From Nannocystis pusilla (lineage in GTDB: Bacteria > Myxococcota_A > Polyangia > Nannocystales > Nannocystaceae), in assembly GCF_026626665.1 (NCBI RefSeq), contig NZ_JAPNKE010000002.1, positions 1,485,204 to 1,549,203 on the forward strand: DNA of 64,000 bases, in the 5' to 3' direction. A model generated the notes under the pieces. That model was not told the DNA's origin and did not search any database. It was given only the letters and a program-made list of their open reading frames with translations. A program made the translations under genes and the position numbers. Shown here in pieces: positions 2,020-50,076 of this stretch. Within the stretch, counting starts at the first letter, position 1. Each line of letters starts with the position of its first letter.

Positions 2020-2726
2020 GCGCGAACGACAACCCCGCGGTCACGGCCGTCGACGCGGCCGCCCCGCCGCTGCCGGGCGGCCAGCGCCTGCGGCCCGCCG
2101 GCGCGGCGCGGCCGGGCTGCCGCGTGCTGGTGATCGACAACTACGACTCGTTCACCTTCAACCTGGTGCAGTACCTGCTGCAGCTCGGCGCGGTGGTCGA
2201 CGTCCACCGCAACGACGCCGTCAAGCTCGAGCAGGTGCTGGCCGACGCGCCGAGCCACATCGTCCTGTCCCCGGGGCCAGGTACGCCGGCGGACAGCGGG
2301 GTGTGCCAGGACCTGTGCCGCCGGCTGGCCGAGGCCGACGCGCCGGCGATCCCGGTGCTCGGGGTGTGCCTCGGCCACCAGACGCTGTGCGAGGTGCTGG
2401 GCGCGCGGGTCGAGCGGGCCGGGCGCATCATGCACGGCAAGCTGTCGCCGATGCTGCACGACGCCACCGGGGTGTTCGCCGGGCTGCCGTCGCCGTTCAT
2501 GGCCACGCGCTACCACAGCCTGATCGCGGTCGAGAGCACGCTGCCGGCCTCGCTGATCCCCAACGCGCGCACCGACGCCGGCGAGCTGATGGGCGTGCGC
2601 CACGCGACGCGGCCGCTGCACGGGGTCCAGTTCCACCCGGAGTCGGTGCTCAGCGAGCACGGCCACGCGATGCTGCGCACCTTCCTCGAGATGCATGTCT
2701 CTTCGAACATGGCGGTGACGACATGA
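2016..2726 (+). CDS. trpG: anthranilate synthase component II (glutamine amidotransferase)
   Basis: GTG at 2016 overlaps the trpE stop (GTGA), preceded by RBS-like GAAGGAGG at 2002-2009. Carries VLVIDNYDSFTFNL, the GVCLGHQ catalytic Cys motif and HPES. Only the last part of the 459..2726 long ORF is real. Confidence 0.9.
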   Translation: MSANDNPAVTAVDAAAPPLPGGQRLRPAGAARPGCRVLVIDNYDSFTFNLVQYLLQLGAVVDVHRNDAVKLEQVLADAPSHIVLSPGPGTPADSGVCQDLCRRLAEADAPAIPVLGVCLGHQTLCEVLGARVERAGRIMHGKLSPMLHDATGVFAGLPSPFMATRYHSLIAVESTLPASLIPNARTDAGELMGVRHATRPLHGVQFHPESVLSEHGHAMLRTFLEMHVSSNMAVTT

Positions 2727-3790
2727 CCGAAGGGACAGCCGACGAGGCGCTGCGGCGCGGGCTGGGCCGGCTGGTCCGCGGCGAGGCGATCGAGGAGGGC
2801 GAGGCGCTGGCGATCTTCCGCGAGATCGTGGCCGGCGCGGCCGACCCGGCGCAGATCGGCGGGCTCCTGGTGGCGCTGGCGATCCGCGGCGAGACGGCGC
2901 CGGTTATCGCGGGCGCGGTGCGGGCGATGCGAGAGGCGGTGGTGCCGGTGCCGCTGCGCGAGAGCGGGGCGATCGACACCTGCGGGACCGGCGGCAGCGG
3001 GGTGGCCCGGCGCAACGTGTCGACGGCGGTGGCGATCGCGGCGGCGGCCTGCGGGGCGCGGGTGGCCAAGCACGGCAACCGCGGGATCTCGAGCCCGTGC
3101 GGCTCGGCCGACGTGCTGGCCGCGCTCGGGGTCGACATCACCGCGCCGCCCGAGCGCGTCGGCCAGTGCGTCGACGAGGTCGGCGTCGGCTTCATGTTCG
3201 CGCCCAGCCTGCACCCGGCGATGCGCCACGCGGCCGCCCCGCGCAAGGCGCTGGGGCTGCGCACCCTGTTCAACCTGGTCGGGCCGATGTGCAACCCGGC
3301 GGGGGTGCGCCGGCAGGTGATCGGCGTGTTCGACCCGGGCAAGGTCGAGGCGATGGCGGCGGCCCTGGGCGCCCTCGGCAGCGAGCGCGTGTTCGTGGTT
3401 CACGGCTTCTTCGCCGGCGCGGACCGGCCCGGGATCGACGACCTCAGCCCCGAGGGGCCGAGCACGGTGGCCGAGTGGCACCGCGGCGCGCTGCGCACGT
3501 ACACGCTGCGCCCGGGCGACGCCGAGCTGCCGGAGGTGCCGATCGCGGCGATCGCCGGCGACGACGCGGCCGGCAACGCGAGCGCGCTGCGGGCCCTCCT
3601 GGCCGGCGAGCCGGGGGCCTACCGTACAAGTGTACAGTACAGCGGGGCGCTGGCCCTGCTGGCGGCCGGCGACGACGGCATCGAGACGCTGCCGGCCAAG
3701 GCGCGGGCGATCGGCGCCGCGCTCGAAGACGGCCGGGCCGCGGCGGTGCTCGACCGGCTCGTCGCCGCCAGCCGCGCTGCGCTACCCTGA
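2723..3790 (+). CDS. trpD: anthranilate phosphoribosyltransferase
   Basis: ATG at 2723 overlaps the trpG stop (ATGA). GTGGSG…KHGNR motifs and the C-terminal glycosyl-transferase family 3 region are present. Confidence 0.9.
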   Translation: MTEGTADEALRRGLGRLVRGEAIEEGEALAIFREIVAGAADPAQIGGLLVALAIRGETAPVIAGAVRAMREAVVPVPLRESGAIDTCGTGGSGVARRNVSTAVAIAAAACGARVAKHGNRGISSPCGSADVLAALGVDITAPPERVGQCVDEVGVGFMFAPSLHPAMRHAAAPRKALGLRTLFNLVGPMCNPAGVRRQVIGVFDPGKVEAMAAALGALGSERVFVVHGFFAGADRPGIDDLSPEGPSTVAEWHRGALRTYTLRPGDAELPEVPIAAIAGDDAAGNASALRALLAGEPGAYRTSVQYSGALALLAAGDDGIETLPAKARAIGAALEDGRAAAVLDRLVAASRAALP

Positions 3791-3799
3791 GGGCAGGAC

Positions 3800-4606
3800 A
3801 TGAGCGACAAAGGCAGCACGTACCTCGACAAGATCCTGGCCGCCAAGCGGGCCGAGCTCGCCGCCCCCCGGGCGACCCGCTCGGGAGCGCTGACCGACCG
3901 CGAGCTGATCGAGCTCGGCGCCCGCCTGCCGCGCCCGCGCGACTTCATCGGCGCGCTGCGCGAGGGCCCGCGCCCGGGGATCATCGCCGAGTTCAAGCGC
4001 GCGTCGCCCAGCGCCGGCGTGCTGCGCGAAGGCGCCGATGCGCGCCAGATCGCGATGCTCTACGCGGCCGGCGGCGCGACCTGCATGAGCGTGCTGTGCG
4101 ACCGGCACTTCCAGGGCTCGCTCGAAGACCTCCGGACCGTGCGCCAGAGCGTGGCGCTGCCGCTCCTGGCCAAGGACTTCATCCTCGAGAAGACGCAGAT
4201 CGTCGAGGCCAAGCGGGTCGGGGCCGACTGCGTGCTGCTGATCGTCGCGGCCCTGCCGGCGCCGCAGCTGCGCAACCTGATCGAGTTCTCCCACACGCTC
4301 GAGATGCAGGTGCTGTGCGAGACCCGCGACGAGGCGGAGATCGATCGCGCCATGGCAGCCGGGGCGAAGCTCATCGGGGTCAACTCGCGCGACCTGCAGA
4401 CGTTCGAGCTCGACCCCGACCGCGCGGCCAAGCTGCGCAAGTACGTGCCCAAGAGCTTTACGTACGTGGCCGAGAGCGGGGTCCGGACGATCGACGACGC
4501 GCTCCGCCTGCGCGACTCGGGGGCCGACGCGCTGCTGATCGGCAGCTACTTCATGACGGCCGACCAACCGGGCGAGGCGCTGCGCGACCTGGTGATGGCG
4601 CTGTGA
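3800..4606 (+). CDS. trpC: indole-3-glycerol phosphate synthase
   Basis: 268-aa ORF with IGPS family similarity (IAEFKRASPS…GVNSRDL…ESGV motifs). Starts 10 nt after the trpD stop. Confidence 0.9.
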   Translation: MSDKGSTYLDKILAAKRAELAAPRATRSGALTDRELIELGARLPRPRDFIGALREGPRPGIIAEFKRASPSAGVLREGADARQIAMLYAAGGATCMSVLCDRHFQGSLEDLRTVRQSVALPLLAKDFILEKTQIVEAKRVGADCVLLIVAALPAPQLRNLIEFSHTLEMQVLCETRDEAEIDRAMAAGAKLIGVNSRDLQTFELDPDRAAKLRKYVPKSFTYVAESGVRTIDDALRLRDSGADALLIGSYFMTADQPGEALRDLVMAL

Positions 4607-4709
4607 GGCTGGCGTCCAGATCCGGTGCCCCGGCGACCGACGGCGGGGTCGCGTGGCGCCTGGCTTCGGGGGCATGTTCTTCCGGACAGGGTGAGAAGGA
4701 CAGGTCCGC

Positions 4710-5342
4710 ATGGCGGTGAAGCTCAAGGTGTGCGGGGTGACCCGCGCCGAGGACCTGGCGGCCTGCGTCGAGCTGGGGGTCGACGCAGTGGGGATCAACC
4801 TGTGGAGCGGGTCGCGACGCGGGCTGTCGCTGACCGAGGCGGGGGCGCTGCTGCGCGCGGTCGACCCGCCGCGCTCGCTCGAGCGCGTGGGGGTGTTCGT
4901 CGAGCCGTCGGCCGAGGAGGTCCGCCGCGCGGCCGAGACGCTGGCGCTCGACCTCGTGCAGATCGTCGGGGCCGAAGAGGTGACGGGCTACGGGCTGCCG
5001 TATCTGTGGGTGGTCCGCGGCACGCCTGCCCTGGCCGAGCTGCTGCCGCCGACGCCCCGGCCGGCCCGGGCGCTGCTCGACGCGGCGGTGCCCGGCTACG
5101 GCGGGGCGGGCCAGACGACCGACTGGGCGTGGGCGGCGACGGCGGTGCAGCAGCTCGCGGGGCTCGAGGTGTGGCTGGCCGGCGGGATCACGCCGGCCAA
5201 CGCGGCCGAGGCGATCGCGCAGGTTCGCCCGGCGGGGCTCGACGTCGCCAGCGGGACGGAGCTGCCCGGGGCGCGCCGCGGGGAGAAGGACCGCGCGGCG
5301 ATCGTGGCGCTGCTGGCGGCCTGTCGCGGCCTGCCTGATTGA
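4710..5342 (+). CDS. trpF: phosphoribosylanthranilate isomerase
   Basis: 210-aa ORF beginning MAVKLKVCGVT…, a typical PRAI N-terminus. Last gene of the trpEGDCF cluster. Confidence 0.85.
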   Translation: MAVKLKVCGVTRAEDLAACVELGVDAVGINLWSGSRRGLSLTEAGALLRAVDPPRSLERVGVFVEPSAEEVRRAAETLALDLVQIVGAEEVTGYGLPYLWVVRGTPALAELLPPTPRPARALLDAAVPGYGGAGQTTDWAWAATAVQQLAGLEVWLAGGITPANAAEAIAQVRPAGLDVASGTELPGARRGEKDRAAIVALLAACRGLPD

Positions 5343-5428
5343 GCATGTTCGGGTGGGCATGTCCGCCGGGACATGTGCGAAAGGACGTGCGCGAAAGGTC
5401 ATGTGTGAAGGGGCATGTCTTTTCGCCG
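5343..5428. repeat. 14-bp periodic repeat array, core GGRCATGTCY, about 6 units
   Basis: …catgttcgggtgggcatgtccgccgggacatgtgcgaaaggacgtgcgcgaaaggtcatgtgtgaaggggcatgtct… lies between trpF and the Mur-ligase-like gene. Confidence 0.7.
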
Positions 5429-11304: not shown

Positions 11305-11489
11305 TCGGCGCGGCGACGTCGGCGCGATCGGCCGGCGAGGCCGGCGGGCCGATCTCGCGGCCGCGGCCGAGCGGCGGGCGCGGCCGCGGCCCCGTGGCTC
11401 GCGCTCGCCGCTCGTCGACGCACCGGTGACCTGTACCGTCGAACATGTACCGCAGAACATGCGCGATGGCACATGTCCCTGCGGTCATC

Positions 11490-12083
11490 TCAGCAGTCGG
11501 CCTCGTCGGCGCCGTCGGGGCAGTCCTCGGCCATGTCGCACTTCCAGGTCGCCGGGATCTCGGTGCCGTTGGTGCAGACGAAGGCCTCGAGGCCGCAGCC
11601 GGTGACCTCGTCCGAGTTGTCGAGGCAGTCGGGGACCTCGTCGCAGGCCCAGGTCGCGGGGATCTCCTTCTTGTCGGTGCAGGTGAAGGCCTCGAGGCCG
11701 CAGCCGCTGACCTCGTCGGAGCCGTCGGGACAGTCGGGGTTCTCGTCGCAGACCCACGCGGGGTTCTCGAGCGCGGTGCCGTCGCTGCAGACGAAGCCGT
11801 CGCCGGTGGTGCTCGCGGTGGCCTCGGTGGTGCCCGCGGTGGCCTCGGTCGTGCTGGTGGGGGCCTCGGTGGTCGTCGGCGCGCTGGTGCCGGTGTCGGT
11901 GCCGGTGCCGGTGGCGTCGGTGGTCTCGCCTGCCGTGCCGGTGCTGGTCGTGTCGTCCGTGGTGCCGGCGGTGCTCTCGGTCGTGGTCGTCTCGGGGCCG
12001 ATGTTGGTGTCGGAGAGACCGCCGAGGTTGATCGTGCAGCCGGCTGTGGCGACGCCCTGACTCATGAGCGCGGCGACGGACAA
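11490..12083 (-). CDS. LDL-receptor class A repeat protein (possible lipoprotein) with a Thr-rich linker
   Basis: Three C-x-EIPATW-x-CD-x-PDC-x-D-x-SDE repeats form an LDLa-type Cys and acidic cluster, preceded by a Thr/Glu-rich low-complexity linker. The start is ambiguous: TTG at 12083 or ATG at 12065. Confidence 0.6.
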   Translation of the reverse strand: MSVAALMSQGVATAGCTINLGGLSDTNIGPETTTTESTAGTTDDTTSTGTAGETTDATGTGTDTGTSAPTTTEAPTSTTEATAGTTEATASTTGDGFVCSDGTALENPAWVCDENPDCPDGSDEVSGCGLEAFTCTDKKEIPATWACDEVPDCLDNSDEVTGCGLEAFVCTNGTEIPATWKCDMAEDCPDGADEADC

Positions 12084-20814: not shown

Positions 20815-20893
20815 TCGGGGCATGTCGCGGAGGACATGTCCCGGCGGCGCGGTGCGTCGGGACATGTCTCGAAGGACATGTCCTGTGCGCCCG
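20815..20893. repeat. 14-bp periodic repeat array, about 5 units
   Basis: ggggcatgtcgcggaggacatgtcccgg…cgtcgggacatgtctcgaaggacatgtcctgtg lies between convergent genes. Confidence 0.7.
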
Positions 20894-24825: not shown

Positions 24826-24915
24826 GGCGGGAGGGACATGTCGGGACAGACATGTCGGGAGGGGCATGGCCAGAGGGGCATGTTCTGAGGGACATGTTCT
24901 GAGGGACATGGGGTC
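24826..24915. repeat. 14-bp periodic repeat array, about 6 units
   Basis: gggagggacatgtcgggacagacatgtcgggaggggcatggccagaggggcatgttctgagggacatgttctgagggacatgggg. Confidence 0.75.
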
Positions 24916-28093: not shown

Positions 28094-28162
28094 TCGGGAC
28101 ATGTCCTCGGGGGCATGTCCGTGAGGGCATGCGCTGACGGGCATGTCCACGAGGACATGTCG
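28094..28162. repeat. 14-bp periodic repeat array, about 5 units
   Basis: tcgggacatgtcctcgggggcatgtccgtgagggcatgcgctgacgggcatgtccacgaggacatgtcgg lies between convergent genes. Confidence 0.75.
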
Positions 28163-31800: not shown

Positions 31801-32047
31801 CCCCGAGCAAGCGCTCGGCGGCGGCGTTGGCGGCCTCGACGGCGCCGGCCGGCGAGACGACGAGGAGCGCGTCGTCCATCAACTCGGTGAACTCGGCCCC
31901 AGGCAGCACGCCCGCCAAGAATACGTGATGCGGGCAGGTTGTTCGAGCGGACGACGAGGGAGGAGGTCGGCCGCGCCCGGGTCCTCGCGGCCGCGACGCC
32001 GACCGGCGGGCGGGCCCGCCGCCCCCGCCCGGCGCGCACGGAACCAC
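28847..32047 (-). CDS. hybrid sensor histidine kinase/response regulator: PAS, PAS, HisKA-HATPase, REC, HisKA-HATPase
   Basis: The first H-box is SHELRTPL and the second H-box is LSHELNNP, separated by a REC domain (LLVADDNPDMR…DVILADVMMP…). Each H-box is followed by an HATPase domain containing a GTGLGL motif. The nominal start is GTG at 32047; a more likely ATG (MDDALLVV…) lies at 31870. Confidence 0.85.
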   Translation of the reverse strand: MVPCAPGGGGGPARRSASRPRGPGRGRPPPSSSARTTCPHHVFLAGVLPGAEFTELMDDALLVVSPAGAVEAANAAAERLLGAERAALIGRDLASLLPHSALDQACRGIDEVRLCTDDGRGTRLSVRVVPRPEGAWIVLRPEPAPLVAPDLKSDQHLRALLSHAPVVLFACDARGVLTLNEPHGLSPLRPHPGDDVGRSIFETYGDIPWVVDAAHRALAGESLTAVGALRGVLYEAHYSPIRVDGVVQGFIGVALDVTEREQTIARYASQQAVFKYVLANVPQAIFWKDRDSRYLGCNQHFLQSTRFTSLEEVIGKTDYEVVASREEADFFRMMDDKVMRSGVPILNIEEPLRLSDGTDSYLLTSKVPIRDDSGEVTGLLGIHVDITERKRMELELQRAKEAADAALRAKSEFLTTISHELRTPLALILGPLESLLAGADDLRGEQARSALTRMWRNASRLGRLVDDILDYQKLEAGKLRPTWEPVDVRGLVLDIVLDAEPAAQAAGIDLRHALADDLGVVPLDRRMFEKILLNLLGNALKFTPAGGAVTVALAGDRGRLHLTVRDTGPGIAPDEHERVFQRFEQLDSSISRKHEGTGLGLAIVREFAAELGGAVELHSALGQGACFVVDLPIDADRLVDLAAAPAPAVAPRGRFDVVVDDVRPEPAPDLPRLLVADDNPDMRAYIAAVLGPDYAVELTANGLDALQAARARPPDVILADVMMPEMDGYELVTRLKRDDDLRHVPVVLLSAKASREETARGLDVGADDYLPKPFAAVELRSRVRAALRLHRTHLEVVRQKQALEQALGALQDAQEQLVQSSKMAAVGALVAGLSHELNNPVAVIRMSAQMLLRRSPRDPFVRRALERIERHSQRCAALVDALLAYTRRRPPGAERCELAQVLHWLVELVRPEADERGVRLIAGFTGASLPALVVHRPSLESALLNIFGNAADATGPGGAIEIEARGAPGGDGRDGAEIVIRDSGVGIAAHDLPHVFEPFYTTKPPGKGTGLGLSMAQKFVRAHGGTIRIDSELGRGTAVRLWLPLLPPDAAAADDLAPVQATEQAR

Positions 32048-32162
32048 GCTCGGCGAGGTCGAACGAGGCCGTCGCGGCCGCTCTTGGCTGCGGTCGGCGA
32101 GCTCGATCGCGTGGGGGCGGCGAGGCCGGCGGCCGCGGGGCGGAAGACGGTTGTATGGTTTT

Positions 32163-32215
32163 TAAGACATGCTTGAATGGACATGTTGACTGGGACATGT
32201 CCTGGAGGTCATGCG
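32163..32215. repeat. 14-bp periodic repeat array, about 4 units
   Basis: aagacatgcttgaatggacatgttgactgggacatgtcctggaggtcatgcgg. Confidence 0.65.
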
Positions 32216-32490
32216 GCGAGGCGGCGGGCGCGGGGTCGCTCGATGTCGGAGCGGCGCGGGCTGCTCAGGGCGGCGTGGGCGTGAGCGCCGGGGCGAGGCG
32301 GGCTCGCGCGGGCGCGCGAGGCGGGGAGAAGTGGGTCGATGTCGGGGCCGAGGCGCCGGCGGGCCGTCCGCCGACCGCGAGGCGGCGGGGGCGGACTGGC
32401 AGGTGCGGGGTGCCTCGATAGCCTTCGCCGAGGCGCTGGCGACGTCGCGGGGCGAGGCGCGAGCGCGGGGCGGCCGGGGAGAGGACACGC

Positions 32491-32866
32491 CATGGAGATT
32501 CGTCGCTGTCGTCGCGGGTTCGCGTTCGTGGGACTGCTGCCATTGATGGTCTCGCCGGGCTGCGAGGAGGTGCAGACATTCGGCGACGACGCGGACGAAT
32601 GGGACGGGACCGCGACGAGCGAGGCGGAGCCGGCGGCCGCGCGCGGCGGGAGCTCGATGCAATCGCAGCACGGCCTGACGTGCAGCAACCGCTGGGCCGA
32701 GGATTGGGGGGCCACGAATTGCGCCGGCACGCCCGGGGTGAAGTGGCGCCTGAAGGTGCGCTGCTGGTGGCACGGCGAGCGTCTGGGGCCGTGGCGGTCC
32801 GGTCCGGGCTCGGACCGCATCACGTGCAGCCTCGGCGCGCAGCGCTCGATGGTGGTGTGGGGCTGA
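32491..32866 (+). CDS. small Cys/Trp-rich putative lipoprotein
   Basis: ATG at 32491 (MEIRRCRRGFAFVGLLPLMVSPGC…). 125 aa. Confidence 0.4.
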
Positions 32867-32936
32867 TCCGCGCGGAGGCGTCCGCGCAGGGGCGGGTGGC
32901 CTGGTTGCGCGCGACGCCGGCGGGTACCATGCGCCG

Positions 32937-34623
<1,687 letters not shown>

Positions 34624-34859
34624 CGCGCGGGCGAGGATAGCAAGGTTCGACGTTGGGGAGCCTTTCGGGTGGCTCATGACGGCGATAAACGGTGTTCCGG
34701 GTGGTGAACTGGGCATGATTTTGGCGGTAAGAGCTTCGACGATAAGAACCATAATTGTAGAACCGCTGAGCGGTGTTCAGTCGGGCCGGTGTCTATACCC
34801 CGTCTAGCTCGCACGCTGATGTCTGAAGCGGGAGCCTTCGGGATCAAAGCGGCACGCAG

Positions 34860-34888
34860 GTGACAAACAGAGGGGCAATCTGTACGCT
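34860..34888 (+). promoter_or_regulatory. candidate sigma70-like promoter for the island operon
   Basis: TTGACA (34860-34865), a 17-nt spacer, then TACGCT (34883-34888), 9 nt before the ATG at 34898. This implies a near-leaderless transcript. Weak evidence. Confidence 0.2.
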
Positions 34889-34897
34889 CGGGCGAGC

Positions 34898-35452
34898 ATG
34901 TCCGAGTCCCAGGAGTGCCTTAAACATCTTCACCAACTGTTCGTCTCCTTGTTCTCCGAAGACGAGCTGAGAAGATTCGTGGCTTACGGTCCCAGCGGGA
35001 CGCAACTCTCAATTGCTGCCGGGACCTGAAACTACCCTCGACAATTGGCTTATTCGGCGATAGACGTTCTTTTCCGACACAATCTGATAGATTTGCATCT
35101 CTTCGATCGACTTTTGGCTGATTTTTCGAGGCGAGGTAATGACATCTCCAATGTGGCGCAAGAATGGGGGATCGTGCTCAAGCGCGCTGAACAACAAATA
35201 ACGCCTTCGCCGCCCGAGGCCGAAGCGCTCAAGACGGTCACCAAACTACCTGCTGACGAGGTCGAAACGAACCGACGACATCTTTCTCAGCGACATGCCG
35301 CATTGCTGGTCGAGCGGGCCCGAGAGTTGGAAGACGGTGGCGACGAAACGAGTCTGCAAGACGTCCTCGGCGAATCGAAGAAGCGAATCGCGCGATGCGT
35401 GCCGGTCCTCAGGTCCAAGTGGGTACCGTTCTCGGTCACCGCTACAAACTGA
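34898..35452 (+). pseudogene. island ORF A: Death-like / effector-associated-domain (EAD)-like N-terminal module interrupted by an in-frame TGA, plus a helical linker
   Basis: The ATG at 34898 encodes MSESQECLKHLHQLFVSLFSEDELRRFVAYGPSGTQLSIAAGT, followed by TGA at 35027-35029. The same frame continues as …QLAYSAIDVLFRHNLIDLHLFDRLLADF…, so the helical-domain signature (L-x2-LF-x3-FS-x-DELRRF … L-x3-L) spans the stop. The frame ends at 35452, overlapping the kinase start. Confidence 0.4.
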
Positions 35453-36177
35453 AAAAGATCCTTGGGAGTGGCGGTGGGGCCGTTGTATTCGAAGCCTTCG
35501 ATTGGCATGAAAAGAAGACGGTTGCGGTCAAAGTCTTGCGCCCAGCTCTCGGAGATAACGGGGAGATCCGGGATCGGTTTTTCCGAGGTGCGCGAAGTAT
35601 GGATGAACTAGCGGGCCATGGGGTTGTCCGCGTGACGGATCGAGGCGGATCGGACCGAGGGTATCACTATTTTGCGATGGAACTGCTCCACGGACGCTTT
35701 CGCACCGTGATCGAAAATGAGGTCCTGAGCTTGCGAAACCGCCTAGACTTGGTCAGGCAAGTCGGAAAAACGCTCGAGGCAGCCCATGCCCGGGGCATCA
35801 TCCACCGGGACATCCGACCGGACAATATCTTGATGGGCGGCGACAGAAAGCCGTACTTGACGGACTTTGATATCGCGCTCTCTCTGCATGAGACTCGATA
35901 TACGCAAATCGGCTTGATGGGAAATATAGTGTATTCTGCTCCTGAGCAGCTGAAGGATCCGCGCGACGCCACCGAGCGCTCCGACATCTACTCGCTGGCT
36001 ATGTTGGCCGTTTACGCGATCCTTCGCGAGGACCCAGATCTTGCCGCCTTTCAGCGTGATCGTTACCTCTTTATTGAACATCTCAACTGTCCCCTAGAAG
36101 TCAAGCAACTGTTGGCTCGAGCTCTCTCTGCGCCCGCGCGACCGGTTCTACGCGTCGGTCTCGGACTTCTGCAGTGA
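35395..36177 (+). CDS. island ORF B: Hanks-type Ser/Thr protein kinase
   Basis: ILGSGGGAVVFEA (Gly loop), VAVKVL, HRDIRPDNILM, a DFD in place of DFG, YSAPEQL, and DIYSLAMLAV. AT-richer codon usage than the host. Confidence 0.8.
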   Translation: MRAGPQVQVGTVLGHRYKLKKILGSGGGAVVFEAFDWHEKKTVAVKVLRPALGDNGEIRDRFFRGARSMDELAGHGVVRVTDRGGSDRGYHYFAMELLHGRFRTVIENEVLSLRNRLDLVRQVGKTLEAAHARGIIHRDIRPDNILMGGDRKPYLTDFDIALSLHETRYTQIGLMGNIVYSAPEQLKDPRDATERSDIYSLAMLAVYAILREDPDLAAFQRDRYLFIEHLNCPLEVKQLLARALSAPARPVLRVGLGLLQ

Positions 36178-36249
36178 CTTGGACCTGGCGCTCCCGGCTA
36201 TCGAGGTCGAGTTGGAGGGGGTCACAGTTTTGTCTCGTTGGACCGCTTG

Positions 36250-37197
36250 ATGCGGCTCTCAGACAAGGAATTTGACGCCCAGGTTGCGCGGGTGGAGGCA
36301 GACATCAATGGTTCTCCGGCCGGACGGCAGTGGCAGGCGCGGCGTGGCCCTCGTAGCCTTCGTGTCGTGGACTTGCTCTCGGCTGCCCGTACTTATGGTA
36401 CAAACGTAGAATTCGAAGGCCGCGAAACTGACCCTGTTTTTTCGGCTACGAGGAGATTAGAGAAATCGAGCGATTTGGATTGGGAGCGCATGTTTGAGAT
36501 TCTATGCGAATTAGCGCCTGGAGACTTTCAGGCTTTCCTGTTTGTTTTCCCTCGCGGAAACGAAGTGAGTGATCCTGGTGCAGCGAGGATTCACCGAGTA
36601 AAGCAAATCTTACAACTGGCGAGGTCTTCCGGCCCAAGCGTGCTCTATGGACTCGTACGGGAGTTCAGGCAACGATTTGAGCTCTTTCCGGACCGGATCG
36701 TAGCCCAACATCCGATGGCTCAGGAATTCTGGGCGCGAGCGCGTTTGCGCAGTGCCGTCGACGAACTGGATGCTGCCATTCCAGATGCTAGTGAGGCCTG
36801 TTGGCAGATGAGACATGCGATCTCGTCCAGAGAGTACGGAGATCTTGAACAATTATTGCGAAATCTGCAGAGGTGGCGAACTTACCCGTTGCAGGCTGCG
36901 CAATGGATCGGCCGCGTTCACAGCCTGCTCATGGAAGTGCCAAAGGCTCTTCGGCGAGGTCTTCGCCGGGAGTGCCGCCACTCTCTTTTCCGGCACGCCG
37001 AGATGTACCGCACTCTCTGCCGTCTCGAGGCGGACGAATGGGAGAGGGTGCGTTCCGAATTCGTTATAGTAAGCGCGAGTCCGGACTTCGCCTGTAGGGC
37101 CGTGGAAGTACAGGTTTTTATGTCGCAAGTTGTTTCTGTAAGTTGCGATGCTCTGTATGGGCGCCTTAAAAGAACTCTGCTTACGAGTTGCCCCTGA
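36250..37197 (+). CDS. island ORF C: hypothetical protein with a central EAD/Death-like module
   Basis: …WERMFEILCELAPGDFQAFLFVFPRGNEVSDPGAARIHRVKQILQLARSSGPSVLYGLVREF… matches the 'F-x2-LvF-x-L … ip … a-x3-ra-x2-Ll-x-wa-x3-g … L-x3-L' EAD-type pattern. The C-terminal half is alpha-helical and unknown. The frame is the same as the kinase, after the kinase TGA. Confidence 0.45.
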   Translation: MRLSDKEFDAQVARVEADINGSPAGRQWQARRGPRSLRVVDLLSAARTYGTNVEFEGRETDPVFSATRRLEKSSDLDWERMFEILCELAPGDFQAFLFVFPRGNEVSDPGAARIHRVKQILQLARSSGPSVLYGLVREFRQRFELFPDRIVAQHPMAQEFWARARLRSAVDELDAAIPDASEACWQMRHAISSREYGDLEQLLRNLQRWRTYPLQAAQWIGRVHSLLMEVPKALRRGLRRECRHSLFRHAEMYRTLCRLEADEWERVRSEFVIVSASPDFACRAVEVQVFMSQVVSVSCDALYGRLKRTLLTSCP

Positions 37198-37267
37198 TTA
37201 GATCTGAACTGCATCCGTCTGAGATTGACGCACTTATTGACGAGCTTGAGGGAATATTCCAACGAGA

Positions 37268-37588
37268 TTGATTATGTATTGCGATCGGCAGTGGGATGAG
37301 AGTAAATCTTGGAAGGAAATACTAAAGGACATCCGGGCTTTCGACGTGGACCGGCCGCAAAGGAGTTATATTATGCTGCGCCAGGAATTCGTAGGATCTT
37401 GTGGCTTGGGAGATCCGCTCCGAGCTCTCACGGGCGAGACAGCGAAGGAGAAAAGTCGAGGAATTTTCGACGTTCTACGGAAAAGGTACACGATCGAGGA
37501 CATGTACCGGGTCATTGCGGCACTACAAATCCCCTCATGGTACCGGCAGCCGGGGAAATCTCGTTCCTCGACTTGCTCGACAGCCTGA
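37268..37588 (+). CDS. island ORF D: small Death-domain-like protein
   Basis: 106 aa. …SWKEILKDIRAFDVD…SYIMLRQEFVGSCGLGDPLRAL…KSRGIFDVLRKRYTIEDMYRVIAALQ resembles a six-helix Death-domain pattern. An alternative frame continues to 37698. Confidence 0.35.
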   Translation: MIMYCDRQWDESKSWKEILKDIRAFDVDRPQRSYIMLRQEFVGSCGLGDPLRALTGETAKEKSRGIFDVLRKRYTIEDMYRVIAALQIPSWYRQPGKSRSSTCSTA

Positions 37589-37670
37589 CTTCCTTTTTGA
37601 TGTTTCTCAACATACCCGGCGCATGCGAAGCTCACGCCGCGATGGAGCCTGATGGATTCGTCGGCTGGAT

Positions 37671-39194
37671 TCACCTCCAGCGAGTTGTTCCATCGTAGCC
37701 GACGGGCGGAAGGGAAGTGGCTCTCGTCGATGCGGCGCGAGCGATCAGCCCGGCGGGGGTGACGCTCTTGAGCTGGCCGCCGGTCATGTCGGAGTAGACG
37801 TAGTGGTCGCCGGCGACGGGGATGTTCTGCATCGCCGGGACGTTGAGCGGGTCGATCTTCCAGGCCCAGCCCTGCTGGTCGACCAGCCACACGAAGCCGT
37901 CGACGTCGACGCTGACGCCGATCGGGGTCGAGCACTGGGCGAGGGTGTGCTGGGCGACGAGGGTGCGGGTGGGGACGTCGATCTCGACGAGGCCGCACGG
38001 GCTGTTGGAGGCGACCCAGGCGTGGTCGTCGTGGTCGATGGCCATGCCGCGGTGACAGGCGTTGGTGCCGGCGACCGAGATCCACTGGCTGGTGGCGACG
38101 TCGTAGGTCGAGACGGGACCGGAGCAGCCGGCGAGCCACGGGTTGCCGTTGCGATCGACGGTCATGCCGTAGGTCTGGATGTTGGAGGGCTGGGGGATCC
38201 GCGTGAGCGTGATCGGGTTCTCGTTGGCGTTGACGCGCGCGAGCTTGCCGCGCAAACCGGTGAACCAGGCGTTGCCCAGCGGATCGAGGGCGCCGCCGTA
38301 AGGGGCGTAGCCGCTGCCGTTCCACGCGACGGCCTCGAGCGACTGCTCCATCACGCCGGTGGCGCCGTCGAGCCGGACCATGTTGGCAGAGCCGGCCTGG
38401 AGGGCGCCGAAGCCGAGCCAGACCTTCTGGTTCTTGTAGGTGCAGGTGGCCTTGTCGTAGTCGCCGATGGTCCAGGTGATGCCGCGCGGACCCTCGATGT
38501 ACTGGCCCGACCAGTTGGCGTGGACGAGGGTCCACACGACGCACTCGTCGGTGCCCCACGGCTTGATGTCGGCGACGCTGGTGGAGGTGGTGATCTGGCC
38601 GTCGCCGTTGAAGTCGATGCAATCGGCGATGTTGGCGGCGACGGCGGTGGAACGCCCGGTGCCGCGCGCGTTGACGACGACGAACCGTCCGTCGCCCGAG
38701 ACGGCGGTGCGCGAGACGCTCTCGGCGCCGCCGCTCGGACCGGTGAGGTAGCGCGCCTCCTCGACGAGGGTGCGCGTGTTGATCTTGGAGACGAGGCCGT
38801 CGCTGGTGGCGGGGATCCAGATGAAGCTCTCGTCGATGTCCATGTCGCCCGCGCAGCCCATGCCGCCGTCAGGCGTGACGCCGAGGTCGAACTTGGGGCC
38901 GCCGTTGGTGGTCATGGTCATGCCCGACATCGAACCGTTGCTGGTGGTCGGCGGGTCGCCGCTGGCGCTCTCGGTCTGACCGACGGTGCCGTCGGTGCCC
39001 TCGCTGGCGCTCATCGAACCCCCCTGCGTGGGGTCCGTCATGGTGGTCTCGGGCGGCAGGGTGAGGCTGCCGATGCTGGTCGCCACCGTGGTCGGAGCCG
39101 TGGCGCTGGCCGAGTCGGCGCGCCCGCTGTCACCGCAGGCGACGAGGAGACCGGCGACGGCCATGGATGCGACCGAAAAACGAGGGGAGACCAT
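37671..39194 (-). CDS. hypothetical lipoprotein, possibly beta-propeller-like
   Basis: Lipobox VAGLLVAC, then a Thr/Ser-rich linker and Trp/Gly-rich repeated segments. High GC again. Its 3' end abuts the right edge of the island. Confidence 0.5.
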   Translation of the reverse strand: MVSPRFSVASMAVAGLLVACGDSGRADSASATAPTTVATSIGSLTLPPETTMTDPTQGGSMSASEGTDGTVGQTESASGDPPTTSNGSMSGMTMTTNGGPKFDLGVTPDGGMGCAGDMDIDESFIWIPATSDGLVSKINTRTLVEEARYLTGPSGGAESVSRTAVSGDGRFVVVNARGTGRSTAVAANIADCIDFNGDGQITTSTSVADIKPWGTDECVVWTLVHANWSGQYIEGPRGITWTIGDYDKATCTYKNQKVWLGFGALQAGSANMVRLDGATGVMEQSLEAVAWNGSGYAPYGGALDPLGNAWFTGLRGKLARVNANENPITLTRIPQPSNIQTYGMTVDRNGNPWLAGCSGPVSTYDVATSQWISVAGTNACHRGMAIDHDDHAWVASNSPCGLVEIDVPTRTLVAQHTLAQCSTPIGVSVDVDGFVWLVDQQGWAWKIDPLNVPAMQNIPVAGDHYVYSDMTGGQLKSVTPAGLIARAASTRATSLPPVGYDGTTRWR

Positions 39195-39784
39195 GGGGCG
39201 ATGAACGCACGATCACCCTCATGAGGGCAAGTACCCGACCGAGCCGATCGAGACGGGGAGGTTCGGATCCATCGTCGGGGGAGCGCCGAGGGGCCTCGCA
39301 TGCGGGGGTCCCGGGGTCGCGTCGGCGACGCGCTAGCGACGAACAAGTGTCCGGCGAGCGATACGAGACGAGAGGCGGGGTCGCGCGGCGACGGGCGCCA
39401 TGCGAATGCGCAGAGAGGCGAGGGCCGGGCGAATGCGGGGAGGCGGCGAAAGAGGCCGTGAGAGGGGTTCAGGAGGGCGTCTGGCGAGGTTCGAGGAGAG
39501 GGTGGCGCGGTCCCGGCGGCAGAGTGATTGCAGCGAGGGCGCACGGTCGACGCATTGCGGGCCGGGACGGTGGGTCGGCGTCGGGAGCGCGGTCGGGCGC
39601 GGGGATCTCCGCAGGGGCTGCCCGCCGGCGTGGGTCGCGCCCAGGGCGAAAATCCCGGGGTCGATCGCGGGGCCGTCGGGGCCGGACGACCCGGGAGCCG
39701 CCGCGGGGCAGGGGATCGTCCGCGCGGCCCGGGTCCGCGGGCGGCTGCAGGGGCGTGCATTTCGGGCGCGGCGCCGCGGGCGGG

Positions 39785-41433
39785 ATGGGTATCATCGCGC
39801 CGATGTCGAGCTCTCGCCGCTCCTTCCTCGCGCTCACGGGGCTCTGTGGGGCCGAGGCGCTGCTCCACGGCCCGCGCGCGGCATCGGCCGGACAGCAGCC
39901 GAGCCGGATCCCGGCGCCGAAGTCGGCGCCCGCGAGCGCAGACGCGGGCATGGCCCTGCTGGCGGCGAGCCGCTTGCTGGCCGACGAGTCGCTGCTGCGC
40001 ACGGCGCTCGCGGCGGCGACGAAGGCCGGGGCGAGCTACGCCGACGCGCGCCTGGTGCTGATGCGCCGCGAGCGGGTCGGGGTGCGCGACGACCACGTGA
40101 GCGGGATCGGTCGCAGCGAGGACTACGGGGTCGGTCTGCGGGTGATCGCGGACGGCGGCTGGGGCTTCGCGGCGACGGCCGAGCGCAGCGCGAAGGCGGT
40201 CGAGGGGATCGCCAGGGCGGCGGTGGCGATGGCCCGCCAGAGCGCGCTGCTGATGCCGCAGCCGGTGACCCTGGCGCCGGCGCCGGTGCTGCAGGGCGGC
40301 TGGGTGTCGCCGTTCCAGGTCGACCCGTTCTCGATCGCGCCGGCCGAGAAGGCGGAGCTGCTGCTGGCGGCGGCCCGCGCGGCGCTGGCGGTGCCCGGGG
40401 TGGCGCACGTGGACGCGAGCGTGGCGTGCGTGCGCGAGGAGAAGCTGGTGATGACGAGCGAGGGCTCGCGGGTCCACCAGATCTTCTTCCGCGTGATTCC
40501 GGGGCTGACCACGACGGCGATCGATCGCCGGCGCGGTCGCTTCGCGGGGCGCGACCACGAGGTGGCGCCGATGCTGGCGGGCTGGGAGCACGTGACCGCG
40601 GCCGACCTGGTCGGCAGCGCGCCGAAGATCGCCGAGGAGGCGCTGCAGAAGCTGCACGCGGCGCCGGCGGTGCCGGGCAAGAAGCACGCGATCCTGGCGC
40701 CGTCGAACCTGTGGCTGACGATCCACGAGAGCATCGGCCACTCGACGGAGCTCGACCGGGCGCTCGGCTACGAGGCGAACTACGCCGGGACGAGCTTCCT
40801 CGGGCCCGACAAGGCGGGCAAGGTCAAGATCGGCAGCGAGATCGTGAACCTGGCGGCCGACCGCACGCAGCCGGGCGGTCTGGCGACGACCGCGTGGGAC
40901 GACGAGGCGGTGGCGTCGCAGCGCTGGGACCTGGTGAAGAAGGGGACGTTCGTCGGCTGGCAGACGACGCGCGACCTGGCGGCGGCGGCCGGCGAGCCGG
41001 CGAGCCGCGGCTGCAGCTACGCCGACAGCTACGCGAGCGTGCCGTTCCAGCGCATGCCCAACGTGAGCCTGCAGCCGGGCACCGAGGGCTACACGACGGA
41101 GGATCTGATCGCGGCGACCGACGACGGGGTGCTGATCACGGGCCGCGGCAGCTGGTCGATCGATCAGCAGCGCTACAACTTCCAGTTCTCGGGCCAGTTC
41201 TTCTGGGAGATCAAGCACGGGCGGTTGACGCGGCCGCTGCGAGACGTGGCGTATCAGGCCAACACGGTCGAATCTGGAGCTCGTGTGACATGCTCGGAGG
41301 GACAGACACGTACCGCCTCGGCGGCAGCATGAGCGACGGCAAGGGCGAGCCGTCGCAGAGCAACGCGGTGAGCCACGGGTGCCCGCCGGCGCGCTTCGTC
41401 GTCAACATCCTCAACACCGGGGGTGACAAGTGA
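39785..41433 (+). CDS. tldD: TldD family metallopeptidase with a Tat signal; apparent frameshift near 41265
   Basis: Tat motif SRRSFLALTG. TldD family similarity through …FQFSGQFFWEIKHGRLTRPLRDV. The conserved C-terminus (…SSCDMLGGTD…GSMSDGKGEPSQSN…PARFVVNILNTGG) lies in a second frame ending at 41433. Confidence 0.7.
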
Positions 41434-46946: not shown

Positions 46947-47010
46947 CGGGACATCATATGACTGCGAGGACATGTCGTGAGAGACATGTCCTCGCAGCCA
47001 TGCATGAGCC
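46947..47010. repeat. 14-bp periodic repeat array, 4-5 units
   Basis: gactgcgaggacatgtcgtgagagacatgtcctcgcagccatgcatgagcc. Confidence 0.65.
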
Positions 47011-47020
47011 GGGTCGCGGG

Positions 47021-49620
47021 TCAGGGCGGGGGCAGGTCGTTGCCCTCGAGGTTGAGGAAGGTGCGGATCGGCTTCGGGCTGCCGGCGGCGCCGACGGCGG
47101 GGATCTCGAGGCCGTCTCCCGCGAGCAGATCCTCGTCGCTGCGGCCGTCGTCGGGCTTGTCGTCGTCGACGTAGTCGAGGCCGTTGGGGACGAACAGCTG
47201 CGGGTGGTCGAACGGGGCCCGCTGATAGACGACGTTCGGGTCGGTGAGCGACTGCAGGAACAGCACGAGGTCCTTGCGCTGCTGCTCGTCGAGGTCGAGG
47301 AAGGTGATGTCGGGGTCGAGCTCGCGGTTGCGGTGGAAGTCGCCGCCGCGGTTGTAGAACTCGACGACCTGCTCGAGGGTCGACATGCCGCCGTTGTGCA
47401 TGTACGGGGCCGTGAGCTGGACGTTGCGCAGGGTCGGGGTCTTGAAGGCGCCGTTCACGGCGGTGCGCAGGTTCTGGATGAAGCGCTTGTTGGCGGCGTT
47501 GTTCTTCGGCTCGCCGGTCGGGGTCTTGAGCTTGTCCTTGCAGTCGGTCTTGTCCCTGAAGCCGCCGGGGAACAGCGGGCCGTCGACGACGATGTTCCAC
47601 GGGACGTCGAAGCTGCACGGGTCGACCTTGAACGGGTCGGGCGCGTCCTTGCCGAGCAGCATCTGCACGTACTGCTCGGTGAACGACAGCGGGAAGCCGA
47701 ACGGGTCCTCGCCGCCGACGCCGATGTCCTCGGCGGTCGGCCGCACGCCGATGTTGTAGAAGCCGTTGTCGTAGAGGGCCGGCTGGCGCAGCTCGACGAG
47801 GGTGCTGGGGCCCTGGCCGACGAAGGCGAGGGTGCCCTCGTCGTCGTAGACGAGGACGAAGTCGAGCCAGGCGTTGGCGACCTTGACGTCGTCGAGCACG
47901 GAGATCCGCAGCGCCGAGGGGCAACCCTTGCCGTCGATCCGCTTGACGTCGATGCGGGCGTCGCGGGTGGCGGAGTCGTCGGCGCCGAAGGTCATGGTCT
48001 CGGGCTTGTAGGTGCAGCTGGCGTCGTCGTCGACCTTGCTGAGGACGATCTGGCCGACGGCCTTGCCGGGGACGATGTCGTCCTTCTTGGCGGTGGGGGT
48101 GGCCTCGACGTCGATCGAGAGGCTGCGCTGGCCCTTGCCGGGCTTCCACTGCGAGAACGGCAGGACCTTGAAGGGCGGGCCTGTGCGCACGCCGTAGTGG
48201 TAGTGCTCCTCGGTCATCAGCATGCGCTCGACCAGGCCGTCCTCCTCCTCCTCGTCGATGAGGTGCAGGGTCGAGGCGCCGGTGAACATGGCGGTCTTGT
48301 GGCAGTTGACGCACTTGCCCTGGTTGAGGAAGACGTCGAAGCCGGCGAGCTCGCGCTTGCCGAGCGCCTTGGGGTCGCGGCCGTCGCGGTACTTGTCGAA
48401 CGGGCTGTCGTCGGAGACGAGGGTGCGCTCGTAGGCCTGGATGGCGAGGCCCCAGAACAGGCTGAAGTTGATCTCCATGAGGCTGAAGCGCTGGTCGGCC
48501 GGGACGGAGTTCGGGTTCTTGAGCAGGTTCTTGCCGGCGTCGAACCATAGGTCCGACTGCCACAGCTTGGCGGCGAAGGCGGTCTCGATCAGCTGCTTGT
48601 AAGTGGTCTCCAGGCCCTTGTTCGGCGCCGCCAGCGGGCCGAGCACGGAATCGTCGGGGTGGACCTTCTGGAACGCGAGCGGGACCGTGGGCGCGCGCAC
48701 CAGCTTGCGGCCGACGTCGGGCAGCGTCCGCCCCTGGCACGATGCCTCGAACGGGCTGAGCACCGGACCGACCGCCTGCGAGGCGAGGGAGCCGTTGACG
48801 ATCTCGAGCTTGCGCTCGACCGGCTTGCCGCCCTTGACCTCGAGGATGAAGGCGTCCTTGTTGCGGCGGCCGAACGGGTCGACGCCGTTGAACCAGCGGT
48901 TGGCCCGGCCGTCCCAGAAGTTGCGGAAGTTGAAGGCGGCGTTGATCACGGTCGGGGCGTTGCGCGGCTCGACCCGGCGCACGTTGATGCCGTCGACCTG
49001 AAACGGCGGGTCGGGGACGGTCTCACACTTGTCGTCGAGCGCGCCCGGCTTGACCGCCTCGAAGTCGGCGCGCCGGACGCCCTGGGAGGAGGTGACGTCG
49101 TCGGTGTCGAAGAGGACCTTCGAATCGCGGTCCTTGGGGTCCTTCAAGACGTGGAATGGATAGTCGCCGGCGACGAGCTGCAATTGGGCCCCTGGCCGCC
49201 GGTCCGGGTCGGATCGAACTCGCCGTTGCCGCCGAGCAGGCCCGGCGACAGCTGATTGCGCGAGCGGTTGTCGGCGCCGGCGGCGAAGTGACAGCTGGCA
49301 CAAGCCTGGCCGTCGCTGCCGCTCTGCATGTCCCAAAACAGGGCCTTGCCGAGCGCGATCGCGGCGTCGTTGTCGACGATAAGGTCGGGCTCGACGGGCT
49401 TGCCGGTGATCCTGTCGAACAGCGGCGGGAGCTTCTCCTTGGCCAGAGAGCCGGGTATGCCGTCGTCCGGGGTGTCCGGCTCGTCCGGCGGCGAGCCCGG
49501 GCCGGGGGCCCCGTCGCCGTTCCAGGTGAAGACGAAATCGCATGCCGTCGTCGCCAGAGCGCCGAACCCTATGCCCATGCATGCGAGCGTGGAGAACCAT
49601 CCACACAGACGATTACGCAT
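47021..49620 (-). CDS. large di-heme cytochrome c peroxidase-family lipoprotein; apparent frameshift near 49190
   Basis: The start frame MRNRLCGWFSTLAC… (lipobox) with the first heme motif CASCH ends at 49144. The main frame to 47021 carries the second CxxCH (CVNCHKTAMF). The frame change falls at a GGGGCCC run. Confidence 0.65.
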
Positions 49621-50076
49621 GCTCCGTTCATTCGCGGCGACCGCGGCGAAAGCTGTGATCGCGGCGATGTCGGCTCGGGTCGCCGCGGGTGCCGCCGCAA
49701 GAACGACGTATCGAGTGCCCTCGCGCCCGCCTGACAGAGGGTCAATTGAGACTGCGGCTCCGGCGCCGGAAGGGAACGGTGAATTCGCGGGAAATCAGGC
49801 GATCCGGGCCGATCCGGGCGCAAGGGAGAGGGCAGTGCCCGGGCGCGTCTTTGGGCGTGGATTCGGGGGAAACCCTATCGTATGAGAACGTGGCTCGCTG
49901 CACACGCCGCACGGTCGCGGGTGCGAGCAATCGTCCCAGCGCCGTTCGGGGGCCATCGGCAATGGTGGTACGCCCGTCGGCGCAGACAATTCGCGGCGTG
50001 CTCGCGCGAATGTTACGTCTCGACGGGCGGGTTTTTCGGGACAGGTCCAGGCCGGCCAGCCGATGGCGTTGCGAGG

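Follow-up and report, generated by a model that had tools for sequence, protein, structure and literature searches.

We describe a small islet of foreign DNA in the genome of the myxobacterium Nannocystis pusilla. The window under analysis is a stretch of 64,000 nucleotides (nt) from contig NZ_JAPNKE010000002.1, and coordinates below are window positions unless another contig or locus is named. At 34631-37745, between a membrane-protein gene and a lipoprotein gene of the host, lies a block of low guanine–cytosine (GC) content that is foreign, strain-specific, and limited to a single gene. The encoded protein is built of four parts: an adaptor at the N-terminus, a helical linker, a serine/threonine kinase domain, and a helical domain at the C-terminus. 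The adaptor is shared with effector and nucleoside triphosphatase (NTPase) proteins of its relatives. The islet is best read as a recently acquired, solitary component of an effector-associated-domain (EAD) conflict system. Taken as a whole, the following account appears likely to us: an islet free of mobility genes replaced two native genes, its cargo is a single adaptor–kinase protein of 936 amino acids from a predicted conflict system, and the deletions that interrupt the gene in the deposited sequence are assembly errors.

The block stands out by composition. Its GC content is 0.553 in 34630-37700 versus 0.728 across the remaining window. Every 500-bp window with a GC content <0.64 falls within 34501-37750, and there is no other such stretch in the 64 kb. 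Tetranucleotide distance to the window background, taken in 3-kb windows, reaches its maximum at 34501-37500 (z = 13.4). GC at third codon positions (GC3) is 0.60 in the islet gene versus 0.93-0.94 in both flanking genes. An earlier, preliminary description of this DNA had reported a sharp drop in GC and proposed a sliding-window check; the measured values (55.3% versus 72.8%), GC3, and the 500-bp and tetranucleotide profiles bear the drop out, and the block clearly deviates from its flanks. Elsewhere in the window, 47001-50000 is a mild tetranucleotide outlier (z = 3.2) of normal GC. The locus comprises the following features:

33928..34623, minus strand: host membrane-protein gene, conserved in strain RBIL2 and in N. 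punicea
34631..37745, no strand: low-GC strain-specific islet, delimited by composition, by loss of homology to loci L001 and L005, and by junctions shared with contig L008
34631..34897, no strand: non-coding leader of the islet, 267 bp, from the sequence
37746..39194, minus strand: host lipoprotein gene, native stop at 37746-37748, conserved in five Nannocystis species and in Enhygromyxa

The islet spans the interval from the membrane-protein start codon to the native lipoprotein stop codon, and both junctions lie <10 nt from the neighboring coding sequences. Homology to L001 and L005 ends at 34630/34631 and at 37737-37747. The membrane-protein gene does start at 34623, as the preliminary description had it; the lipoprotein end that it placed at 37671 is a product of a 2-base deletion at 37754. 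The leader holds neither an open reading frame (ORF) nor a consensus promoter. It now also lies upstream of the divergent membrane-protein gene, in place of the native DNA lost from there.

Both junctions and the block between them are also present in a second data set. L008 is an 8071-bp Logan short-read contig from run ERR2215891, which spans 32333-40391 at 99.8% identity and contains the block with 2.3-2.7 kb of host DNA on either side; a literature search found no paper that mentions this run. Sharp compositional boundaries in a long-read-only assembly are what an assembly chimera, or a contaminant joined into the Nannocystis contig, would produce. The short-read contig refutes this explanation, to which we give practically no credence: the block is neither chimera nor contaminant, because L008 independently reproduces it together with both junctions.

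The block is specific to this strain among the genomes compared. These came from a scan of species-representative genomes for the flanking lipoprotein, which provided 5 other Nannocystis and 2 Enhygromyxa genomes. None of the 5 other Nannocystis genomes has the block at the orthologous site (0/5) or any low-GC DNA downstream of its lipoprotein gene. In each, homology to the window ends at 37734-37747, a few bases from the lipoprotein stop codon. The closest genome is that of RBIL2, which has been termed a subspecies of N. pusilla (PMC10435759); its flanks match the window at 91.5-95.7% identity. Both RBIL2 and N. punicea regain homology at 34630/34631, a few bases ahead of the codon that starts the membrane-protein gene. 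Between the homologous flanks they have 2.6-2.8 kb of host DNA with 72-73% GC, 90% identical between the two genomes, with one gene for a TPR membrane protein and one for a TPR-AAA+ ATPase, both oriented like the flanking genes. Neither gene has a match anywhere in the 64-kb window.

This two-gene arrangement is the native state, and the low-GC block took its place in the N. pusilla type-strain lineage. The preliminary description had pictured a simple insertion between two host genes; instead, the islet is a replacement, because RBIL2 and N. punicea keep two native genes at the site that have been lost here. The ancestral co-directional row lipoprotein–TPR–AAA–membrane protein was broken in the process. 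The proposal that the block is recently acquired foreign DNA agrees with its deviant composition and with the comparison to related genomes, all five of which, RBIL2 included, lack it at this locus. There are no further foreign neighbor genes, since both flanks (27.2-34.63 kb and 37.74-48.5 kb) are syntenic with RBIL2.

The site itself is unstable. N. exedens, N. bainbridge, and N. radixulma lack longer stretches of DNA at the islet position, and the region 3' of the lipoprotein gene takes four configurations in six Nannocystis genomes: the native TPR and AAA pair, the foreign kinase gene, and deletions reaching window positions 32874, 32023, or 28120. This instability would suit an ancestral block that was lost in relatives. 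An alternative in the same vein is that low GC is intrinsic to the gene: in L009/L011 the related gene, too, lies 6-7 GC points below its surroundings. Against these ideas, RBIL2 (the closest genome) and the more distant N. punicea share the two native genes, hence the older state. A GC3 of 0.60 in a genome at 0.93 marks unameliorated DNA, and the related gene in L010 has a host-like GC (0.70 versus 0.70). We consider either form of this explanation very improbable.

The host genome also carries intergenic repeats, which the preliminary description had found missing from the block. GGGACATGTCC-type repeats have 28 matches in the window versus 1.08 expected; the islet has no array, as described, and does contain one isolated match with 1 mismatch. 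Palindromic GGGACATGTCC-type intergenic arrays lie at 20831-20884, 24833-24899, 28096-28120, and 32192-32203, and coincide with synteny breaks at 28120 (N. bainbridge) and at about 32030-32250 (four genomes). In two species such repeats occur directly 3' of the lipoprotein stop (L003, about 11480-11520; L004, about 11460-11540). These repeats may mark rearrangement-prone spacers.

The islet lacks the usual signs of mobility. Attachment sites and a nearby integrase had been proposed as checks, and the search returned no attachment-type repeats, transfer RNA (tRNA), or integrase. Neither repeats (flanking direct, flanking inverted, or terminal) nor expression signals of the islet exceed chance, no tRNA or Rfam feature occurs in the 64-kb window, and no integrase, transposase, or other mobility gene was found at the islet. 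A mobile-element origin was considered and rejected: there is no plasmid match and no viral-contig match, and phage matches are limited to the generic kinase domain. The gene has no close relative, with a best homologue 34% identical overall and 42% in the kinase domain. Relatives reside in genomes of 68-70% GC, one of which likewise holds a GC-poor copy; the donor genome was presumably mid-GC. The precision of the junctions could reflect selection for intact neighbors, or an exchange by homologous recombination with some Nannocystis strain, not yet sampled, in which the gene was already present.

The four co-directional, tightly packed plus-strand ORFs of the preliminary description exist as described, but they are fragments of one 936-codon gene. 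The ORFs, the gene, and the deletions that separate them are listed here, with deletions scored against L008:

35045-35452, plus strand: apparent ORF from the ORF listing, 135 amino acids
35395-36177, plus strand: apparent ORF from the ORF listing, 260 amino acids (kinase)
36238-37197, plus strand: apparent ORF from the ORF listing, 319 amino acids
37268-37588, plus strand: apparent ORF from the ORF listing, 106 amino acids
34898..37698, plus strand: single gene for a 936-amino-acid protein, intact in L008 at 2566-5373
35010, plus strand: 2-base deletion (TA)
35044, plus strand: 1-base deletion (T in a T-run)
35365, plus strand: 1-base deletion (T in TCTCTC), which splits the 135-amino-acid ORF from the kinase ORF
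36121, plus strand: 2-base deletion (CT in a (CT)n run)
36216, plus strand: 1-base deletion (G in a G6 run)
37167, plus strand: 1-base deletion (A in an A5 run), which terminates the 319-amino-acid ORF
37266, plus strand: 1-base deletion (A)
37551, plus strand: 1-base deletion (G in a G5 run), which terminates the 106-amino-acid ORF
37754, minus strand: 2-base deletion (G7 to G5) in the host lipoprotein gene, scored against L008 and five species

Over ~8 kb, the window and L008 differ by four substituted bases (about 3 substitution events) and nine indels. All nine indels are 1-2-base deletions in the window, situated in homopolymers or short CT/TA repeats, and eight of them fall inside the islet. 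Once the L008 bases are restored, one open frame of 962 codons results, and the ATG at 34898 gives a protein of 936 amino acids that aligns from the linker to the last residues with its relatives P0123, P0125, and P0124 (1035-1089 amino acids). HMMER also returned P0122, a 701-amino-acid protein of L008 (99% identical) that begins midway in the kinase ORF, takes in the 319- and 106-amino-acid ORFs, and ends at 37695. At L008 2488-5373, the stored gene call begins at an internal Met, giving P0122, despite the 962-codon open frame; a spurious 87-amino-acid minus-strand gene is called on the same contig across the 5' part of the islet gene.

The stops in the window arise from pairs of deletions. 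Those at 35010 and 35044 jointly yield an apparent in-frame TGA at 35027-35029, and those at 36121 and 36216 jointly yield the stop at 36175-36177 that ends the 260-amino-acid kinase ORF. Recoding or nonsense readings of the TGA at 35027 and the stop at 36175 were rejected: each sits in a short out-of-frame stretch between compensating deletions. The deletion at 37754 swaps the lipoprotein C-terminus ...SVTPPPG* for an unrelated read-through tail of 31 residues; the ...SVTPPPG* end is conserved in five species and is restored by the G-run of L008.

The fragments have left traces in protein collections. Two window ORFs match N. pusilla proteins at NCBI (identical or 99% identical). Exact-sequence look-ups of three window ORFs gave no match, and a word-index protein search gave nothing for a 339-amino-acid frame and only the window's own fragment for the read-through N-terminus. 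These searches failed because the true full-length protein is missing from the protein collections.

The fragmentation is very probably an assembly error. The only published N. pusilla genome is that of Na p29 / DSM 14622 (ASM2662666v1), assembled with Flye from Nanopore R9.4.1 Flongle reads and corrected with Racon and Medaka only (PMC10435759); we read the broken frames as errors because the genome is Nanopore-only and was corrected in this way alone. The main rival is real decay in the sequenced stock, in which the gene would be a pseudogene with genuine frameshifts and the intact copy in ERR2215891 would come from a sister stock or sister strain. The distribution of the indels speaks for decay and against assembly error: eight of the nine lie in the 3.1-kb islet, and the 5 kb of flanks contain one (p about 0.003 under a uniform distribution); homopolymer density, which differs merely 1.7-fold, explains the clustering only in part. 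Several of the indels do sit in A/T-rich or CT-rich contexts that are nearly absent from the flanks. In addition, inactivation could plausibly strike an immune gene that is newly acquired and may be toxic. The pattern of change points the other way: nine 1-2-base run deletions versus ~3 substitutions in 8 kb is the error pattern of Nanopore R9.4.1 in an assembly without short-read polishing, and a like deletion wrecks the lipoprotein C-terminus common to five species. One frameshift would have been enough to inactivate the gene, and eight in an otherwise 99.9% identical gene are implausible. None of the frame-disrupting deletions (0/8) is found in L008. We therefore hold decay to be unlikely. 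RBIL2, at 5-8% divergence from the window, is too distant for an assembly-error rate to be drawn from indel counts. Other genes in this assembly probably carry similar homopolymer errors.

With the frame restored, the protein divides as follows:

34898..35179, plus strand: N-terminal adaptor, ~95 amino acids, EAD-like, from phmmer/jackhmmer searches
35180..35442, plus strand: helical linker, from alignments
35443..36145, plus strand: Hanks-type Ser/Thr protein kinase domain of the RFFRGAR clade, from Pfam PF00069
36146..37695, plus strand: C-terminal all-helical domain, ~520 amino acids, from searches and AlphaFold 2 (AF2) models

The adaptor links the islet protein to effectors. It was searched over all fetched loci by a single phmmer pass followed by jackhmmer iteration. 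The single pass places it at the N-terminus of a PNP_UDP protein, two kinds of CHAT protein, a dynamin-like GTPase, and six other kinases, at E values from 1.7e-20 to 7e-06. The best match (E 1.7e-20) is a stand-alone PNP_UDP protein whose gene lies directly 5' of that for relative P0123/P0131. After iteration the adaptor is also found on a NACHT protein and on another large protein. Several of these adaptor-bearing proteins are encoded directly beside the closest relatives of the islet gene. We rejected an assignment to the Pfam EAD or Death domains, for which neither Pfam nor NCBIfam gives support in the fragment, the full protein, or 11 homologues; the same Pfam search picks up EAD1, EAD2, and EAD7 in sister kinases. 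A relation to the C-terminal domain was likewise rejected by profile comparison. The adaptor has no sequence match in the PDB.

The linker looks coiled-coil-like. All relatives have its conserved part, D-x-[ST]...[RK]xxL[RY]xG[PG]x[LVF], ahead of the kinase domain. The kinase is the only domain that Pfam sees in the 936-amino-acid protein (residues 184-383, extending to about 418), and it matches PF00069 with 94-97 bits versus a gathering cut-off of 31.7. It keeps the glycine loop, the VAVK lysine, HRD, the catalytic Asn, the DF(D) aspartate, and APE; HRDxK is HRDxR. The islet kinase carries the clade signature RFFRGAR plus D-x-G-x-HYF. RFFRGAR (35560-35580), whose Gly takes the place of the alphaC glutamate, is invariant in 62/62 metagenome relatives, in which DFD stands for DFG and the other catalytic residues are kept. 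Judged from these residues, kinase activity is atypical but plausible.

The C-terminal domain is rare. An exhaustive HMMER protein search covered 1.84 billion representatives and returned 5 distant relatives, to which a metagenome scan added locus L012. The carriers are P0123/P0130/P0131, P0125, P0124, P0126, and L012, about seven proteins in total. No sequence match to Pfam or the PDB was found. Two AlphaFold models consist entirely of helices at low confidence (predicted local distance difference test scores 54 and 66; predicted template modeling scores 0.35-0.38), and internal repeats are weakly hinted at (hhalign probability about 20%). The domain takes the position that FGS (FGE-sulfatase) occupies in sister kinases and has no PF03781 match; because of this position, it may be a sensor.

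The relatives supply the context that the window lacks. Among the closest full-length relatives, P0123 and P0125 have a PNP-like domain in place of the adaptor, and P0124 has a CHAT domain there; TIR is the domain found on P0003, the best kinase-only relative. The kinase signature of the clade, used to scan metagenomes, gave 80 loci and 62 non-redundant proteins with RFFRGAR. Associated domains in these 62 are FGS (33), TIR_2 (31), SEFIR (6), EAD1 (4), PNP_UDP (2), EAD2 (1), and SIR2 (1). Three clade proteins with the new adaptor show the layout adaptor-kinase-FGS. A related metagenomic kinase gene in L023 (1814-4207) has one in-frame stop at codon 307.

A gene cluster around the relatives is conserved in two independent contexts, L009/L011 and L010. 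Its core comprises a TPR-kinase (850-950 amino acids), a protein of 146-158 amino acids, a Peptidase_C14 caspase, and an adaptor-CHAT protein; variable extras are an adaptor-PNP protein, Metallophos, NACHT, an adaptor-dynamin protein, and an Eco57I-like enzyme. The cluster occupies 2399-12865 in L009, 2804-13270 in L011, and 2-10394 in L010, with between-locus identities of 33% (TPR-kinase), 30% (Peptidase_C14), 37% (adaptor-CHAT), and 35% (effector-kinase-C-terminal-domain protein). It looks like an undescribed composite system. Cognate adaptor copies are encoded in the relatives' loci L009-L011 and L010; the 64-kb window has none.

Myxobacteria encode hundreds of signaling Ser/Thr kinases. 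The islet gene could be one more of these, acquired by horizontal transfer and serving development or physiology rather than immunity. Pkinase is indeed its sole curated domain, the window holds no effector or partner, and the PADLOC matches are to generic kinase models and cover the kinase domain only. This explanation fits poorly with a clade dominated by TIR, SEFIR, EAD1/2, PNP, SIR2, and FGS fusions, and with closest relatives that carry CHAT or PNP and adjoin caspase, CHAT, NACHT, and dynamin-like genes with the same adaptor. Nor is there a close Nannocystis or other myxobacterial kinase; the best non-self match is 42% identical. An ordinary signaling role is, in our judgment, improbable, and we infer membership in the predicted counter-invader conflict systems because of the architecture and the relatives.

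Several observations weigh against such membership and against the wider account of the islet, besides the clustering of indels. Within the kinase, the alphaC glutamate is a Gly (in RFFRGAR) and DFG is DFD. The adaptor has no Pfam-A or NCBIfam match at E <= 10 among 11 members, and the 64-kb window contains neither a second adaptor copy nor an effector gene. The C-terminal model has no recognizable fold, with nothing below E = 2.7 in a Foldseek search of the PDB, and the domain takes its "sensor" label from position alone. Finally, the gene has no close relative, and plasmid, phage, and viral collections gave nothing beyond the generic kinase domain.

If the islet gene does belong to a conflict system, its mode of action can be sketched. 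The C-terminal domain would sense a cue, and the kinase would act as a switch or transducer. The adaptor would then recruit proteins bearing the same adaptor by homotypic contact; judging from the relatives, these would be caspase-like CHAT proteases, PNP nucleosidases, and dynamin-like or NACHT NTPases. The outcome would be growth arrest or cell death upon invasion. This model predicts partners elsewhere in the genome, because no adaptor-bearing partner lies within the 64 kb; should N. pusilla lack them, the gene may work by itself or have no activity.

A bolder version is possible, though we put it forward tentatively: the 936-amino-acid protein may be the sensor-transducer of an uncharacterized, kinase-centered, NTPase-less immune pathway, in which a new helical sensor of ~520 amino acids would activate an atypical kinase devoid of the alphaC glutamate, and a hitherto undescribed adaptor would then recruit CHAT and PNP proteins. 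Such a pathway would be a bacterial counterpart of the death-fold-kinase logic of animals (IRAK/RIPK), and the solitary module captured by N. pusilla would plug into effectors encoded elsewhere in the genome. Experimental tests of this kinase clade were absent from the searched literature.

The findings bear on annotation as well as on biology. In an assembly made from Nanopore reads alone, one gene of 936 codons came out as four "genes", and a neighboring host gene was altered too; two of the fragments are listed as NCBI proteins and would mislead the mining of kinases or orphan genes. The cargo defines two domain families that lack a curated model: an adaptor that connects kinases to CHAT, PNP, dynamin-like, and NACHT proteins, and a rare helical domain in the place of FGS. 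The partners of the clade (TIR, SEFIR, EAD1/2, PNP, SIR2, and FGS) place its kinases in the predicted apoptosis-like immunity of multicellular bacteria, and the clade can be approached through this copy, which stands alone, arrived recently, and sits in a myxobacterium that can be cultured. The event itself is of an ordinary kind: a variable locus gained a small piece of DNA by recent horizontal transfer. Its cargo is moderately interesting.

How does the islet compare with known systems? It resembles classical genomic islands in its deviant composition, strain specificity, and variable locus. It differs from them in having no integrase, transposase, tRNA, or direct or inverted repeats, in carrying one gene only, and in having replaced native genes with junctions <10 nt from the neighboring coding sequences. 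Among defense kinases, its kinase domain matches the PADLOC models for PD-T4-6, Stk2, mad6, and MkoA (E 3e-48 to 1e-20); the N- and C-terminal domains have no match there, and the kinase match is no evidence of membership. In animals, IRAK/Pelle and RIPK1 fuse a homotypic-interaction adaptor to a Ser/Thr kinase in pathways that end in caspase-type effectors. The islet protein may resemble these death-fold kinases in layout; it has no sequence relation to them beyond the kinase domain, and no PDB sequence match gives its adaptor a death fold.

The closest parallels are found in EAD-coupled systems. In these, a small adaptor on a core or signaling protein is matched by further copies on effectors encoded nearby or elsewhere, and the adaptor is interchangeable with direct effector fusions (Kaur et al. 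2020, PMC7159879). Unlike the known cases, the islet adaptor falls outside the curated EAD and Death-like models, the core is a kinase rather than a STAND, MoxR, or GTPase NTPase, and the gene stands alone, the 64 kb holding no partner for it. The likeness lies in a small, terminal, presumably non-enzymatic domain common to the signaling protein and to the CHAT, PNP, NACHT, and dynamin-like proteins of its relatives, in sister proteins that fill the adaptor position with TIR, SEFIR, PNP, CHAT, SIR2, or Pfam EAD1/EAD2, and in a myxobacterial host, as EAD-coupled systems are those of multicellular bacteria. FGS is a predicted invader-sensing lectin-fold domain that lies C-terminal to a switch domain (Kaur et al. 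2021, PMC8195603). Where the TIR/EAD–kinase–FGS proteins (L075, L031, L034, and 30 others) carry FGS, the islet protein has a helical domain of ~520 amino acids instead; it shares with them the tripartite layout and the RFFRGAR, GxHYF, and DFD signature, and with the EAD/effector–NTPase–FGS proteins (PMC8195603) an N-terminal effector or adaptor, a central switch, and a variable C-terminal domain.

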